This document shows, piece after piece, positions 29,578 to 39,821 of a stretch of 64,000 nt of DNA. This DNA comes from a virus, in the IMG/VR virus record IMGVR_UViG_3300044632_001218; one strand, written 5' to 3'. Below the pieces are notes generated by a model, which was not told where the DNA came from, did not search any database, and saw only the letters and a program-made list of their open reading frames with translations. The first letter of the stretch is position 1. Every line of letters starts with the position of its first letter. Position numbers and translations under genes: made by a program.

Positions 29578-30354
29578 ATGGCAGTAGATTACACTAAGTT
29601 GTATTATAAAACTGATGATATATTAAAGAAATTTAAACCTTCTTTATCTAATTATTTTAATGTGCATGTAAGTGCTGACTATGATGGTATCAACCAATCT
29701 TTTGAAAAGGATATAGATTTTTTGGCATATGAGGCAGTTCTTCCAGGAACTTCATATGAAACCACGCAAGTATTTGGAGACAGACAAGGAATCACAGAAA
29801 CATTTGCAAATAAAAGAGTTTATCCTCCTGTAGATATAAGTTTTTATATTGATAATAACTATAATATTTTAAGATTTTTTGAAAGTTGGATGGGATATAT
29901 TAGTCCAAATTCAGGGGTTCCTTATGAGTCATATCAAAAGTTTAATTATCCTCAAAATAATGGATTAAGTGGATATAAAAAAGAAGTTATTATAACTAAA
30001 TTTGAAAGAAATTTTAGAACCCCTGACCAAAGATTAGTTGAGAATGGAGTATATGATGTTCCTGATAGTAACTGCACTTATATTTTAAGAAATGCTTATC
30101 CAACTAATGTAATTGCAGTTCCAGTTTCATATGAAGGCGCAAATATATTAAGAACAACAGTAACATTTAATTATGATATTTACAGATTTGAAAAGTCTGA
30201 TGGAAAACCAATAAATGGTGATGGTGGAAATTCAAGTGCTCAACCTGGAGGAGATTCTGGAGCAACATTGGGGGAATTAAATAGACAAGTTAGATTGATT
30301 AATGAAAATATTCCTATCACTGGATTAAATCCTAACCCAAGAGATGTGGGATAA
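29578..30354 (+). CDS. Tail tube-like protein (gp19/gp54 family)
   Basis: A.LPG.S, R.YPPV..SFY.D..Y..L.FFESW..YI, LRNAYP; divergent from g4. Confidence 0.7.
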   Translation: MAVDYTKLYYKTDDILKKFKPSLSNYFNVHVSADYDGINQSFEKDIDFLAYEAVLPGTSYETTQVFGDRQGITETFANKRVYPPVDISFYIDNNYNILRFFESWMGYISPNSGVPYESYQKFNYPQNNGLSGYKKEVIITKFERNFRTPDQRLVENGVYDVPDSNCTYILRNAYPTNVIAVPVSYEGANILRTTVTFNYDIYRFEKSDGKPINGDGGNSSAQPGGDSGATLGELNRQVRLINENIPITGLNPNPRDVG

Positions 30355-30383: not shown

Positions 30384-31115
30384 ATGCCTTTACCTACAGT
30401 TGCAACTCCAACCTATGAGTTGACATTACCATCAAACAAAAAGACTATTAAGTACAGACCTTTCTTAGTCAAGGAAGAAAAGATTCTTATCTTGGCTATG
30501 GAAAGTGGTAATTCAAAAGATATTACTAATGCAGTTAAGAATACATTGAAAGATTGTATTTTAACCAGAGGCATTAAGATTGATTCTCTTCCAAGTTTTG
30601 ATATTGAGTATCTGTTTTTAAATATTAGAGCAAAGTCAGTTGGAGAATCAGTAGAATTAATCATCACCTGTCCAGATGATAATGAAACACGTGTAGATGT
30701 TACTGTTAATATTGATGAGATTGAAGTTGTAATTCCAGAAAATCATACATCTGAAATTAAAGTTGATGATAGTATTACAGTTAAGATGAAGTATCCATCA
30801 CTTCAAGAGTTTATTGATAATAATTTTGATTTCTCTGGACAAACTGGAAGTAAAGAAACTATTGACAAATCATTTGATATTGTTGCATCTTGTGTGGATA
30901 TGGTTTATACCAAAGATGAATCTTGGTCTGCTGCTGATGTTACTAAGAAAGAATTGATTGAATGGTTACAGACATTTGATTCAAATCAATTCAAAGGTAT
31001 TGAAGAGTTCTTTGATACTATGCCTAAACTTTCTCACACATTAACAGTTAAGAATCCAAACACTGGCGTTGAGAATGAAATTGTATTGGAGGGACTCTCA
31101 AGTTTTTTCGGATAG
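30384..31115 (+). CDS. g26: Baseplate hub assembly protein gp26
   Basis: MPLP....PTYEL.LPS..K..KYRPFLVKEEKILILA, FD.EYLFL.IR.KSVGE, LEGLSSFF. Confidence 0.92.
   Translation: MPLPTVATPTYELTLPSNKKTIKYRPFLVKEEKILILAMESGNSKDITNAVKNTLKDCILTRGIKIDSLPSFDIEYLFLNIRAKSVGESVELIITCPDDNETRVDVTVNIDEIEVVIPENHTSEIKVDDSITVKMKYPSLQEFIDNNFDFSGQTGSKETIDKSFDIVASCVDMVYTKDESWSAADVTKKELIEWLQTFDSNQFKGIEEFFDTMPKLSHTLTVKNPNTGVENEIVLEGLSSFFG
31088..31109 (+). promoter_or_regulatory. Putative -1 programmed frameshift signal
   Basis: GGAGGG (31088-31093), then in-frame X_XXY_YYZ heptamer T_TTT_TTC (31103-31109). Confidence 0.65.
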
Positions 31116-31291
31116 TCCTTAGTCATGAAGATTTGGAGTCTTATTATAGAGTTAATTTTGCCTTGATGCAGTATCATAAATACTCTTTGACTGAGATTGA
31201 AAATATGATGCCGTGGGAACGTGAAATCTACTTAACTCTTTTAGAAAATCATATCAAAGAAGAAGAAGAAAAAGCATCAAGAGTAAAATAA
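31103..31291 (+). CDS. g51: Baseplate hub assembly catalyst gp51 (probably made as a gp26-gp51 frameshift fusion; first ATG 31166)
   Basis: -1 frame reads FFRIVLSHEDLESYYRVNFALMQYHKYSLTEIENMMPWEREIY... Confidence 0.85.
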   Translation, partial: FFRIVLSHEDLESYYRVNFALMQYHKYSLTEIENMMPWEREIYLTLLENHIKEEEEKASRVK

Positions 31292-33010
31292 ATGACTCCA
31301 GGAGATTTTGGATTTAAAGATAGAGTATCTAGATTTATTTCAGGAGCAAGTTCCAGAAGTAAATTTGGATTCTCTGCTACGCCAAAACTCACAAGAATTG
31401 CTGGGATGTTTCCAAAAAGACAAGTCCCTCAACAAATTGTATCTGGGTCTTCTGAACAAACAGATCCAGAAATTGGAGCGCCAAAAAGAGTTATTTCTTC
31501 TTTAGGAAGATTGACTTTAGACCTTGAGATTGTCAACAATAATCTTGATAGAATTGCATCAATTATTCTTCAAGATTATAAAGAAACTCAAGATACAAAT
31601 AAAAAAGAAATAGAAGATTTTAGAAAAAGAGTTGCAAATAGAGGTAGATTATTTGGTAAGAAAGAGTTAGGAGATAAGAAATCTGATGTTCTTGGTGCAG
31701 TTAAAAAATATGTAGGGTCATTCTTTAGTGGTGCTGGAGGTGCTATCAGAGCACTCTCTATGTTTAATTTGATGCAGGGGATTTTATCTGGAGACCCATC
31801 TAAAATTATTGGACCACTTCTTGGAATAGGATTAACATATCTTCCTGCTATTGGTGCTGGAATTGCTGGTGCAGTAGCAACATCTTTGGTTGGGAAGTTA
31901 TTTGGAGGTGGGGCAGCAACAAGAGCAGCAGCATCAGCAGCTCCTGCAGCAGCTGGAGCAGGGGGAGCACTTGGAAGATTGGGTAAATTTGGTGGAAGAG
32001 CTGCACTTGTTGGTGGAGGAATTGCATTAGCAAGTAGTATCTTCAATAGACCACAAGAAGATCAATCACAACAAAGATTAGAAGAACTTACACAACAACA
32101 AAAAGCATCAGTAGAACCTGGAAATTTAGTTCCAATTCCACAAGATGATTTGAGGAGATTCGAAAAATTAAACAAAAAATTTGAAGCAGCACTTGACTTT
32201 TTATTAGGCAAACAAAAAGAACAAGACAGGCAACCTCAAAAAACAGGTGGGAGAGGAGGTGGAGGAGGTGGGGGTGCTCCTCCCCCTCCTGGTCAAATTA
32301 TGTCAGGACCTGCCCCTGGAGAAATTAATGCTTTGATGTCAGCAATTTCTGGAGCAGAAGGTGGATTAGAATCAGTTAATAAAATAGGTCCTATGCCTGG
32401 TTTGTCTCAAATGACTATTGATGAAGCCATATCAAAAGTTGAATCATTCAGAGCACAAGGTAAAACCTCAGGGGCTATGGGCAACATGCAGCAAATGTCT
32501 TATTACTTGAGAGAAAGAGCTATAGCAGCAGGGTTAGATCCATCAACAGCATTGTATAATCAAGAAAATCAATACAAAATTAATAGAGCATATCTTGCCG
32601 GTCTTTTTTCTGGAGGAGAACAGGAAATAGTTAATTTAATTAGGTCAGGTAAAATCAATGAAGTAGTGAATAAATTAAAAGGAGTTTGGCCATCTCTTCC
32701 TGGAGGATCTCAAGAAAATGTTCATACATCAGATTTTTATAGAAGATTTCAAACTTTCTTAGGGCAAATATCATCTCCTGGAACTGTAACACCACCAATA
32801 AGTCCTGTTGCACCAGCACCAAGATCTGCAGCAACTGCTGCTCCAAGAGCACCACAAACACAAGTTACAGTTCTTCCTTTACCAACTCAACAACAATCTT
32901 CCCAAGCATCTGCAGTTTCTGGAGGAAATGATACTGTTCCATCAATAGATACTACTTATCCTGAAAACTTCTTGGCTTTGTATTCTAAACTAATCTATCA
33001 GATTGTTTGA
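31292..33010 (+). CDS. Tape-measure-like tail protein with C-terminal muramidase-like domain
   Basis: Coiled-coil plus Gly/Ala hydrophobic segments; AISGAEGG...AMGNMQQM...ENQ...WPSLP resembles a lambda-type lysozyme fold. Confidence 0.55.
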   Translation: MTPGDFGFKDRVSRFISGASSRSKFGFSATPKLTRIAGMFPKRQVPQQIVSGSSEQTDPEIGAPKRVISSLGRLTLDLEIVNNNLDRIASIILQDYKETQDTNKKEIEDFRKRVANRGRLFGKKELGDKKSDVLGAVKKYVGSFFSGAGGAIRALSMFNLMQGILSGDPSKIIGPLLGIGLTYLPAIGAGIAGAVATSLVGKLFGGGAATRAAASAAPAAAGAGGALGRLGKFGGRAALVGGGIALASSIFNRPQEDQSQQRLEELTQQQKASVEPGNLVPIPQDDLRRFEKLNKKFEAALDFLLGKQKEQDRQPQKTGGRGGGGGGGAPPPPGQIMSGPAPGEINALMSAISGAEGGLESVNKIGPMPGLSQMTIDEAISKVESFRAQGKTSGAMGNMQQMSYYLRERAIAAGLDPSTALYNQENQYKINRAYLAGLFSGGEQEIVNLIRSGKINEVVNKLKGVWPSLPGGSQENVHTSDFYRRFQTFLGQISSPGTVTPPISPVAPAPRSAATAAPRAPQTQVTVLPLPTQQQSSQASAVSGGNDTVPSIDTTYPENFLALYSKLIYQIV

Positions 33011-33013
33011 TAA

Positions 33014-34999
33014 ATGGACCCAACATTACTTCTTAACAGACCAGTTGTAAAACCAAGAATAGTAGCAAAGATTACGAAGTTTAATAATCTTGTTGAGGTT
33101 TCTACTGAAGCTAGAAAGTCTTCTACTAAACTTAGAAAGGTTTTTGAAAAGGGAAGTTACCAAAAGAAAACCCAACTTTCAGTATTAAACAGATATAAAA
33201 AACGATTAGAAACTATTCAGAAACAAAATGATAGATCATTTCGTAAAAAACAAAGAGTAAAAGTTAAGTTACCAGACATTAAAAAGTATGTTGGAAACTT
33301 TTTTACGCCAGGATCTGCTGATGATCCTCTCAAAGCAATAGGAGCACTTGCAGCATTTAAAGCAGTTCAAAAAGGTTCTAAAGGTGATTGGGGTGGGGCA
33401 TTAGCTTCTGGTTTAGTTGCAGCAGGATTAACTCTTGGACCTTCACTGTTGGGATTTGGTGCTGGTGCTTTGATGGGTAGAGGGGGAAGAGGAGGAGGTG
33501 TTGGTCCTGAAGTAGGAGTTACTCCTCCCAAACCATTAAAACCAGGGTCTATAAGTAGATTAAATGCATCACAAGCAAGATTCATTCAAGGTAGTGCAAA
33601 TATTGGTGATAGGGCAAGATTAATTCGTAGAGGAACTATTTCTCCTACAGGGGCATTTTCTCGTGGTGGTCCAGAGCAAATGGCAAAGTATGGGGCAGAC
33701 ACCTCAAAAGTTGGAAAAGCATTTGGTAGATTTGGTAAAGCAATTATTCCAGGCGTTGGTGCTGCAGTTGGGGCTATTGATGCAGGATTGAGAACAAGTG
33801 AAGGTGATTACACAGGAGCTAAAATAGCAGGAACATCAGCAACTTTAGATGCACTTGCTGCTGCATCTGCTGCTACTGGAATTGGATTGCCAGTTGCTGG
33901 ATTACTTTCTATTGCATCATTTGCATTAGATGTAACTAATCTTGTTCGTGATTTAAGTGGCTCAAGTGAAAAAGAAGCACTGGCAAATAAATCTCAGCAA
34001 AATAGGTTAAAACAACAAACAGAAAAACAAAAACAAGCAGTTGAGGGTAAGAAGGAAGAAGGTGGAGCACTTACCTTTAGAAAAACTTTGAATGGTTATG
34101 AAAAGGCAGTTAATAAATTTGAAGAATTTGTTAAAGGATTTAAAGGTGGTATGGGAATGGGTGGGGAACAGTCTGGAGTTATTGAAACTGGAAATAGAGG
34201 ATTAACTACTGGTGAATCCCTTCAAGATTTAGAAGCAACTGGAGGAGAAGTTCCAGGAAGACCAGATTCTGCTTATGGCCCAAGAGGAGGAAGACTACAC
34301 AAGGGGAACGATTATAATAGATCAGTTGGCACTCCAATCAGTATCATACAACCAGGAACTGTAACTGTTGCAGATATGAATTATGACCCCAGTGGATGGG
34401 GAGCAGTAGTTGAGATTAGACATCAAGATGGGTCTATAAGTAGGTATGCACACCTAAGTCAAATAAATGTTGCAGCAGGAACTCAAGTTTCTCCTGGACA
34501 AGTAATAGGAAAAGTTGGTGGTGCTCCTGGTGCTCCAGGATCTGGAAACTCTACAGGAGCGCATTTGCATTTTGAATATGAAAATGGTTCAGGAAGAATT
34601 GATCCAACTGCAATAGCACCAAGAATTTTTAGATTTGGTGGCGATGTAAGAGTTAAGCAACAATCAACACAACCACAACCTCCTGGTTCCAGACCAAGCA
34701 CTGCAGCACAATTGAGAGCAATTGGACAATCTGATGCTGCTTCACTATTAGAAAGACAACAACCTCCTGCTCCACGTAGACCTCCTTCAATTACACCTCC
34801 ACCACGAACACCAAGACCTGTTGGAAGTTTTCTTCCATATCAACAAGGAAGTCAACAACAAGTCACGGCATTTTATCCTGTGTCACAACCACAACAACAA
34901 CCTATGCCATCTGAAGATGTTCCTATGATGATGACAGGTCCATCAGAGCAACAGTTGTTAAATAGTTTCTATAAGAGAGTCCTTCTTAATACTGTATAG
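33014..34999 (+). CDS. Tape-measure-like tail protein with M23 peptidase domain
   Basis: HKGND, YAHL, STGAHLHFE (HxxxD/HxH zinc ligands). Confidence 0.75.
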   Translation: MDPTLLLNRPVVKPRIVAKITKFNNLVEVSTEARKSSTKLRKVFEKGSYQKKTQLSVLNRYKKRLETIQKQNDRSFRKKQRVKVKLPDIKKYVGNFFTPGSADDPLKAIGALAAFKAVQKGSKGDWGGALASGLVAAGLTLGPSLLGFGAGALMGRGGRGGGVGPEVGVTPPKPLKPGSISRLNASQARFIQGSANIGDRARLIRRGTISPTGAFSRGGPEQMAKYGADTSKVGKAFGRFGKAIIPGVGAAVGAIDAGLRTSEGDYTGAKIAGTSATLDALAAASAATGIGLPVAGLLSIASFALDVTNLVRDLSGSSEKEALANKSQQNRLKQQTEKQKQAVEGKKEEGGALTFRKTLNGYEKAVNKFEEFVKGFKGGMGMGGEQSGVIETGNRGLTTGESLQDLEATGGEVPGRPDSAYGPRGGRLHKGNDYNRSVGTPISIIQPGTVTVADMNYDPSGWGAVVEIRHQDGSISRYAHLSQINVAAGTQVSPGQVIGKVGGAPGAPGSGNSTGAHLHFEYENGSGRIDPTAIAPRIFRFGGDVRVKQQSTQPQPPGSRPSTAAQLRAIGQSDAASLLERQQPPAPRRPPSITPPPRTPRPVGSFLPYQQGSQQQVTAFYPVSQPQQQPMPSEDVPMMMTGPSEQQLLNSFYKRVLLNTV

Positions 35000-39161: not shown

Positions 39162-39821
39162 ATGGCAAACATTAATACCATAGAAACTGAATCAATTCAG
39201 GTTGGGACAGCTCTTGCTCCTGCTATTGCTGCTGTAGATATTTGGCCATCTTTAGATCCAACTGTGCCATTTTCACAACAAGTTAATGGTATTAATAATT
39301 TTGTAGCACTGACAAATCAAATTGGTTTGTATAATGGTATAGGACTACAATCTATTACTGGTCTTAGTAATTTGCTTGGATTTAAAACTGGTGTTGGTGG
39401 GCAAGCAAATGCAGAACCAAAACAAGACAATGCAACTCCTACTGCAAAGCATAGTTCTCCAAATGGCAATCTTCTTGGAAGTTGGAAGTTAAATGGAGTA
39501 CCTATACAAACAGTATCAGACATTAAATTTAAAGTAAATATAAAACCTCTTCAAAATTCTTTAGATAAAGTTTTGAAGTTGCAAGGTATGGAATATGATA
39601 GGACTGATTATGAAAAGCACGAATATGGATTAATTGCACAACAAGTAGAACAAGTAATTCCAGAACTTGTAGATGAAAATTCAGAAAAAACTAAATTAGT
39701 TCATTATCAAAACTTAACTGCTGTTCTTGTAGAGGCGATTAAAGAACAACAAGAACAGATCAATTCCCTCAAGCAGACAGTTCAGGAACTGTCCACCAAA
39801 CTTGCAGAGTGCTGCTCTTGA
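39162..39821 (+). CDS. Spike/fibre tip protein with peptidase S74 intramolecular chaperone
   Basis: SDIKFKVNI, LDKVLKLQG, GLIAQQVEQVIPELV, Y..L.AVLVEAIKE. Confidence 0.85.
   Translation: MANINTIETESIQVGTALAPAIAAVDIWPSLDPTVPFSQQVNGINNFVALTNQIGLYNGIGLQSITGLSNLLGFKTGVGGQANAEPKQDNATPTAKHSSPNGNLLGSWKLNGVPIQTVSDIKFKVNIKPLQNSLDKVLKLQGMEYDRTDYEKHEYGLIAQQVEQVIPELVDENSEKTKLVHYQNLTAVLVEAIKEQQEQINSLKQTVQELSTKLAECCS

Follow-up and report, generated by a model that had tools for sequence, protein, structure and literature searches.

Within a 64,000-nucleotide (nt) stretch of viral DNA (IMG/VR record IMGVR_UViG_3300044632_001218; called the window here, with all coordinates referring to it and all features of the locus lying on its + strand), we identified a gene of a T4-like phage, gene 26, that is very likely a tail (baseplate-hub) assembly chaperone gene decoded as a short and a long form by a -1 frameshift. 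In this scenario, most ribosomes would stop at the TAG at 31113-31115 and release the short form of 243 amino acids (aa), while a minority would slip by -1 on U_UUU_UUC at 31103-31109 when one tRNA-Phe sits on UUU in the P site and another on UUC in the A site. Both tRNAs would re-pair with UUU, and the -1 frame would then be read from the CGG at 31109 to the TAA at 31289-31291. Such a slip would yield a 302-aa long form, with its last ~60 residues constituting the Gp51_C domain, while T4 and its close relatives make both forms from the paralogous genes 26 (short) and 51 (long). If the long form arises in this way, the small "gp51" of cyanophage-type genomes would be the C-terminal tail of that form and not the product of its own gene.

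A first-pass annotation of this sequence had already proposed that gp26 (243 aa) is made together with a fusion of gp26 and gp51 (302 aa), in the manner of the lambda G/GT pair. Our comparisons support this proposal through the invariance of the heptamer relative to other Phe-Phe pairs, the presence of coding open reading frames (ORFs) that lack a start, colinearity with T4 gp51, the loss of the T run in phages with two genes, and a predicted tail assembly chaperone (TAC) fold. From the sequence comparisons, we infer that the slip is ribosomal. By analogy with lambda G/GT, its rate is probably a few per cent, and the two forms would act, as lambda gpG and gpGT do, on a tape-measure-type protein and the tube.

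The heptamer at the end of gene 26

The short form (TAC-N) is encoded at 30384..31115. Its product matches PF12322 (T4_baseplate) with an E value of 2.1e-75, residues 8-242 aligning with profile positions 1-218 of 219, and falls into phrog_150, "baseplate hub," which corresponds to gp26. In the zero frame, the gene ends ...TTG GAG GGA CTC TCA AGT TTT TTC GGA TAG, placing the slippery heptamer T_TTT_TTC (31103..31109) in X_XXY_YYZ phase, where it may serve as a site for the tandem -1 slip of two tRNA-Phe. The -1 frame is closed upstream by a TGA at 31076..31078, opens at 31079, 24 nt before the heptamer, and reads FFRIVLSHEDLESYYRVNFALMQYHKYSL... up to the TAA at 31289-31291. Its first ATG lies at 31166-31168, with in-frame TTG codons at 31133 and 31163, and a Shine-Dalgarno (SD)-like GGAGGG is located at 31088..31093. 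All the sequence statements of the first-pass annotation, namely the end of g26, the phase of the heptamer, the GGAGGG, the limits of the -1 frame, and the first ATG at 31166, are correct. Zero-frame reading gives 243 aa and the conceptual -1 fusion gives 302 aa; the short form ends ...SSFFG, and the predicted junction of the long form is ...EGLSSFFR, followed by IVLSHEDLESYYR.

In this AT-rich DNA, TTTTTTC occurs 34 times in the window, compared with 36.5 expected occurrences, which is no more than chance would provide. The significance of the heptamer comes only from its position, phase, and conservation, which go far beyond chance. We sampled 80 IMG/VR loci with 75 to 100% gp26 identity together with P-SSM2, S-CAM4, S-PRM1, and S-PM2, and the clade totals 85 loci, representing 67 distinct sequences with a median nucleotide identity of 76%. 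Every locus (85/85) and every distinct sequence (67/67) has TTTTTTC one codon before the g26 stop. Positions 0-7 of the heptamer, among them three synonymous sites in succession, have zero entropy, compared with a mean of 1.15 bits at third codon positions upstream. The other Phe-Phe pairs in the same genes, which provided a control, use TTCTTT, TTTTTT, TTCTTC, and TTTTTC freely, with a T-preceded TTT TTT in only 1/67, and Phe codons elsewhere in gp26 comprise 536 TTT and 215 TTC.

The same signal extends to distant phages. Isolates were found by tblastn of a phage collection, and sampling was widened by looking up cluster representatives; searches for related loci with the gp26 of KVP40 or of the Rhizobium phage returned close relatives only. 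At the end of g26, T_TTT_TTN is present in the same register in all ten (10/10) distant single-gene T4-like isolates, as GAT TTT TTC in KVP40, OLIVR5, Mosig, S-CRM01, and P-HM1, as AGT TTT TTT in Melnitz-3 and HTVC008M, as AAT TTT TTT in phiN3, and as T_TTT_TTG variants in Rhizobium phage RHph_I34 (GAT TTT TTG) and in phiM9 (TCT TTT TTG). Across these isolates only the Z position varies, as the rule for tandem slippage permits, and the run persists through a change from Phe to Leu. The codon before the run is always NNT, whether it encodes S, D, N, T, or A.

The gp26 family comprises ~4,500 clusters at 50% identity, and F-[F/L] lies within the last 10 residues in 119/121 full-length gp26 representatives. 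For seven cluster representatives, chosen by gp26 similarity only, DNA was retrievable; T_TTT_TTY is present in 6/7 of these, preceded by AAT, GAT, GAT, ACT, GCT, and GAT. Alignment of the junctions across the clade, the distant isolates, and the representatives thus bears out the earlier expectation that the heptamer is conserved in relatives.

The overlapping frame and the chaperone family

The -1-frame extension (31109..31291, ~60 aa), with which the 302-aa long form (TAC-NC) would end as a C-terminal tail, matches phrog_634 (E = 2e-30), labeled "baseplate hub assembly catalyst," as well as the last 55 positions of phrog_150. Because the latter is the gp26 profile, this match was the first hint that some members of the family carry the tail in frame. 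In precomputed annotations of relatives the tail is named PF28602 Gp51_C, and tblastn reaches gp51 of Aeromonas and Stenotrophomonas phages. The first-pass annotation had assigned ~14 residues upstream of the first ATG to the gp51 family, and the extension is colinear with T4 gp51 residues ~200-249.

T4 gp51 (249 aa) contains PF12322 at residues 1-201 (E = 4e-52) together with the phrog_634 tail (residues 147-246 match), and T4 gp26 (208 aa) contains PF12322 alone. We fused the two frames conceptually for the window (302 aa), P-SSM2, KVP40, and RHph_I34 and aligned the products using MAFFT with gp51 of T4, 44RR2.8t, and IME13; the alignment is gapless across the junction, and T4 gp26 ends exactly at this point. 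Genes 26 and 51 are separate, divergently transcribed paralogs in T4, 44RR2.8t, and IME13, and all of these two-gene phages (3/3) lack a T6 run both where g26 ends and at the junction within g51; T4 g26, for example, ends GAG TTC TTT GAG TTA CTA TAA. The window therefore resembles T4 in that the body is PF12322 and the long form adds Gp51_C as a tail, its conceptual 302 aa being colinear with gp51 and its 243 aa with gp26, but differs from it in that one gene with a -1 overlap takes the place of two divergent genes without a T run. With a full-length short form, a homologous tail, and a colinear junction, the products of the window belong to the PF12322 plus PF28602 chaperone family. A tree of PF12322 leaves the deep order open, with T4 gp51 on a long branch, and does not settle the direction of change between one gene and two.

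In T4, gp26 and gp51 act as hub assembly chaperones (Leiman et al. 2010, PMC3004832). T4 gp51 is required for assembly and is absent from the particle. The gp51 proteins of cyanophages and marine vibriophages were found to be without the first ~200 residues, which was left unexplained (Sullivan et al. 2010, PMC3037559); these residues would be missing because gp26 supplies them through the frameshift.

The -1 frame is under coding constraint where no start codon is available to it. ATG, GTG, and TTG are all absent between the heptamer and a conserved His in 33/67 distinct relatives, and in this subset, the 17 codons that follow the heptamer show a -1-frame periodicity (0.41 bits at position 1, 0.20 at position 2, and 0.72 at position 3), with synonymous codon differences of 53% in the -1 frame versus 17% and 12% in the other two. 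The conserved residues are likewise not preceded by a start in OLIVR5, Melnitz-3, Mosig, HTVC008M, P0169, and P0199, the first Met of P0199 lying 30 residues from the end of the -1 ORF. The earlier claim that no ATG lies upstream of the conserved segment is valid for the window and about half of its relatives, and fails for many others, in which ATG, GTG, or TTG is found just after the g26 stop. In 49 relatives, 24 nt separate the opening of the -1 frame from the heptamer; the distance is 12 nt in 11 relatives and 0 nt in 5. The heptamer is directly preceded by a -1-frame stop in 5 relatives, as well as in Melnitz-3, P-HM1, and P0259, and entry into the -1 frame must therefore occur at the heptamer itself. 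Reading in the +1 frame can be dismissed, as this frame is full of stops in every lineage.

Public records treat the small ORF inconsistently: in GenBank and RefSeq it is started at differing internal Met codons or omitted. The Gp51_C ORF is unannotated in S-CAM4 (L002, 1114-1292) and S-PRM1 (L003, 1111-1295), and in Melnitz-3, Mosig, and HTVC008M (L095-L097, ~905-965) the annotated start at an internal Met removes ~17 conserved residues. In no GenBank or RefSeq record that we looked at is the gp51 ORF joined to gp26. Separately, 47 longer database proteins carry the tail in frame. Rare in-frame gp26-gp51 proteins of ~300 aa, which come from public metagenome assemblies, were not used as evidence, since the two that we inspected were singletons from Pilon-polished long-read assemblies, with either a T7 run (L101, 1008-1014) or an extra A just upstream (L102, 1009-1014). 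Such forms are probably homopolymer indel artefacts and not natural fusions.

Structure prediction provided a further line of comparison. Using an AlphaFold2 model of gp26 (pLDDT, 94.3), an exhaustive VIA-align search over 48,161 chains returned only three chains with Z scores of at least 5: 3fgx (Z = 7.8; root mean square deviation [rmsd], 4.0; 86 aa), the HK97 tail assembly chaperone 2ob9 (Z = 7.5; rmsd, 3.8; 85 of 104 residues), and YqbN, 3klu (Z = 7.3). The next chain scored 4.8 and the rest 3.9 or lower. All three matches, which are of moderate Z, align with gp26 residues 1 to ~90. A Foldseek search with the same model gave nothing at an E value of 0.001 or below, and a search of the PDB with the gp26 sequence gave no match. 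The predicted structure thus supports the conclusion that the N-terminal domain of gp26 has the fold of the HK97 tail assembly chaperone. The C-terminal half of gp26 contains a zinc-ribbon-like element in many relatives. For the long form, we modeled a database protein of 302 aa, P0131 (pLDDT, 90.5), in which the tail is predicted to consist of short helices, three in number (pLDDT, 65-77), and a terminal helix that is long (pLDDT, 88-95).

Stimulatory elements and rival explanations

Several observations weigh against a frameshift at this site. The representative P0216 (L103) has TTT ACC in place of the T run. Moreover, since Phe-Phe is also conserved at the protein level, part of the constraint on the heptamer acts on amino acids. 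About half of the relatives have ATG, GTG, or TTG right at the g26 stop, which makes an independent small product possible in these phages. The elements that might stimulate slippage are poorly shared: the SD-like motif is present in 41/67 relatives and missing in 26/67, the 60 nt after the heptamer in the window fold no better than shuffled sequences (z = +0.92), and no consensus downstream structure was found in the clade of the window (alifold energy, ~0).

In E. coli dnaX, -1 frameshifting involves an internal SD upstream and a hairpin downstream. The first-pass annotation had pointed to an internal SD of this kind as a stimulator, and GGAGGG is indeed present 9 nt upstream of the heptamer, where it may be a lineage-specific stimulator. 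It is nevertheless not conserved; it belongs to the Leu-Glu-Gly codons, in which GAG and GAA alternate for Glu (synonymous site -12, 1.05 bits). Strong hairpins 5-10 nt past the heptamer were detected in P-SSM2 (z = -3.25), S-PRM1 (-2.12), S-PM2 (-5.48), OLIVR5 (-3.53), S-CRM01 (-2.17), and P-HM1 (-2.31), with positions mapped to 1115-1150 in locus sequence L001, 1111-1141 in L003, 1121-1155 in L004, 915-939 in L094, and 874-891 in L100; none was found in KVP40, HTVC008M, or RHph_I34. The hairpins of different lineages are unrelated in sequence and occupy the same position, and look like lineage-specific frameshift stimulators that have been gained and lost. The window is therefore like dnaX in its SD-like GGAGGG 9 nt upstream, as are some relatives in a strong hairpin 5-9 nt downstream, but it differs in that the SD ~10 nt upstream is not conserved and that the window has no stable downstream hairpin. 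Because neither the SD-like motif nor the hairpin is conserved, only one signal is universal, namely the heptamer lying near the stop, as is the case for lambda G/GT.

An alternative source of the long form would be transcriptional slippage, in which one extra U, inserted by RNA polymerase at the T6 run, would bring the whole long form into a single frame in part of the mRNA, with no slip by the ribosome. Polymerase slippage on U runs has been described (Atkins et al. 2016, PMC5009743). The conserved element at the end of gene 26 is a homopolymer, T6 or T7, and the comparative data, including the invariant T that precedes the Phe codons, would equally fit a requirement for a long run. However, T6 followed by C is kept in 67/67 sequences even though TTT would be synonymous and would lengthen the run, and the run always stands in the exact X_XXY_YYZ phase that ribosomal slippage alone requires. 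Reports of slippage by bacterial RNA polymerase usually concern runs of at least about 9 A or T, compared with which T6 is short. We therefore consider this explanation improbable.

A second alternative dispenses with recoding. Here, the small ORF would be translated alone, either from an initiation event of its own or through reinitiation after termination at the g26 stop, and the T run would be kept only for the sake of Phe-Phe; in the window, the start would have to be TTG at 31133, ATG at 31166, or a noncanonical codon such as ATA at 31112. In many relatives, the two ORFs do overlap as TAATG or TGATG, or an ATG follows the heptamer at a distance of 2-5 codons, and annotated genomes call a separate gp51. 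P0216 likewise combines the absence of the run with an ATG in the -1 frame directly after the stop (AAT TTT ACC GGT GGG TGA; L103, 880-927), on a 932-bp contig that ends 5 nt past the stop. This explanation is at odds with the 33/67 relatives and the several distant isolates in which no start precedes ~17 conserved coding residues, as well as with the late position of the first Met in P0199, and the differing internal Met codons chosen as starts in annotated genomes remove conserved sequence. Furthermore, the terminal Phe-Phe codons are fixed while those of the control pairs vary, T4 gp51 bears the tail fused in frame, and the two-gene phages have lost the run. Translation of the small ORF alone is, in our assessment, about as improbable as transcriptional slippage. 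Alongside a ribosomal frameshift, a free small peptide may be added in those phages in which an ATG overlaps the g26 stop.

Known tail chaperones, neighboring genes, and meaning

The features of a tail assembly chaperone pair were found together at this locus: a -1 overlapping ORF that needs no start of its own, an in-phase conserved heptamer, and the predicted chaperone fold. With respect to position, a tube-family gene lies 5' of gene 26, and the two proteins encoded downstream, of 572 and 661 aa, have no recognizable tape-measure family and no convincing similarity to gp29. The likeness to lambda G/GT thus consists of a gene placed between a tube-family gene and long candidate tape-measure-type genes, and of a predicted TAC fold in the N-terminal domain. 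No similarity to the lambda proteins can be detected by sequence, and gp26, at 243 aa, exceeds them in size, with an extra C-terminal half. The heptamers also differ, being U_UUU_UUC in the window and G_GGA_AAG in lambda. In phage P2, the tail chaperone frameshift E/E+E' is a -1 slip on TTTTTTG, and the window shares with P2 a contractile tail and a chaperone ORF that has a poly-T heptamer shortly before its end, the Rhizobium phage and phiM9 variants being T_TTT_TTG; by sequence, the P2 proteins are of another family. A -1 frameshift is conserved among tail assembly chaperone genes, and for lambda gpG/gpGT, a low frameshift rate (~30:1) is an assembly need (Levin et al. 1993 and Xu et al. 2004, in Atkins et al. 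2016, PMC5009743).

At the DNA level, the locus is ~70% identical to Kyanoviridae such as S-SRM01 and P-SSM2. The order of its hub and spike genes is tube-family gene, g26/51, two genes for long Gly/Ala-rich proteins, a tail protein gene, and a gp5-like spike gene. The tail-tube-family gene (gp54/gp19-like; 29578..30354) matches PF23849 Phage_TTP_2 (E = 7e-14) and phrog_45, tail tube (E = 9e-34); a gene of this type also lies 5' of gene 26 in relatives, where it is labeled "baseplate tail tube initiator." Directly after the chaperone gene stand the adjacent genes for the two long Gly/Ala/Pro-rich proteins. The first (31292..33010) encodes the Gly/Ala-rich 572-aa protein, a candidate tape-measure-type protein from its position after the chaperone gene, as in relatives; it has no Pfam match and no BLASTP similarity to T4 gp29. 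The second (33014..34999) encodes the 661-aa protein, which contains an M23 peptidase domain (PF01551, E = 6.5e-22). The PHROG matches of the 661-aa protein include tape-measure families, reached through the M23 domain, and its BLASTP match to T4 gp29 is weak (E = 0.009), with nothing convincing. Both are thus candidates for tape-measure-type proteins by position, and together they may provide the tape-measure and tail-lysin functions that gp29 and gp5 cover in T4. Adjoining the gp5-like spike gene, an ORF at 39162-39821 encodes 219 aa, of which the C-terminal ~100 residues match C termini from over 30 PHROG families of tail fibres and baseplate wedges (best E = 2e-29). Its product may be a small fibre-tip or fibre-chaperone-like module.

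The genes that encode tail assembly chaperones in T4-like phages were identified by Vladimirov, Gautam & Davidson (Virology 2022;566:9-15), as reported in later papers (PMC10885494, PMC12846349). Citing that work, the PRFect paper states that some T4-like phages have short and long (fused) chaperone genes instead of frameshifting, and the paper on phage Adele states that poly-T -1 signals are present in the TAC-N genes of T4-like phages. Beyond papers that cite Vladimirov et al., we found no direct description of gp26 or gp51 in connection with a frameshift. According to the first-pass annotation, such a frameshift is not known to have been described in T4-like cyanophages. In kind, this does not hold: as far as these citing papers convey the 2022 study, this kind of gene has been published for T4-like phages, and the window is therefore one more, unannotated member.

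A wider and more tentative proposal, which we think less likely than not, is that the long chaperone is produced in most T4-like phages through a -1 slip on U_UUU_UUN without a stimulator, with the two-gene arrangement of T4 as the exception. The invariance of the heptamer at three synonymous sites, the absence of the run from two-gene lineages, and the coding -1 ORFs without a start, in a family of ~4,500 clusters, would be the first solid case for it if the 2022 paper left single-gene phages open or argued against ribosomal frameshifting in them. Lineages with an ATG at the stop might additionally produce Gp51_C as a free peptide, and would then have three products, a system of a kind not known for tail chaperones.

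Hundreds of T4-like genomes carry a wrong or incomplete public annotation at this locus, and the long product has never been annotated in them. The proposed frameshift accounts for the puzzle raised in 2010 by the shortened gp51 of cyanophages and marine vibriophages (PMC3037559), the missing part being gp26. If confirmed, it would extend the short/long rule of tail chaperones to the largest group of phages with contractile tails. It would also provide a natural pair for the study of frameshift replacement by gene duplication, with one gene and a slip in the phage analyzed here and two genes in T4.

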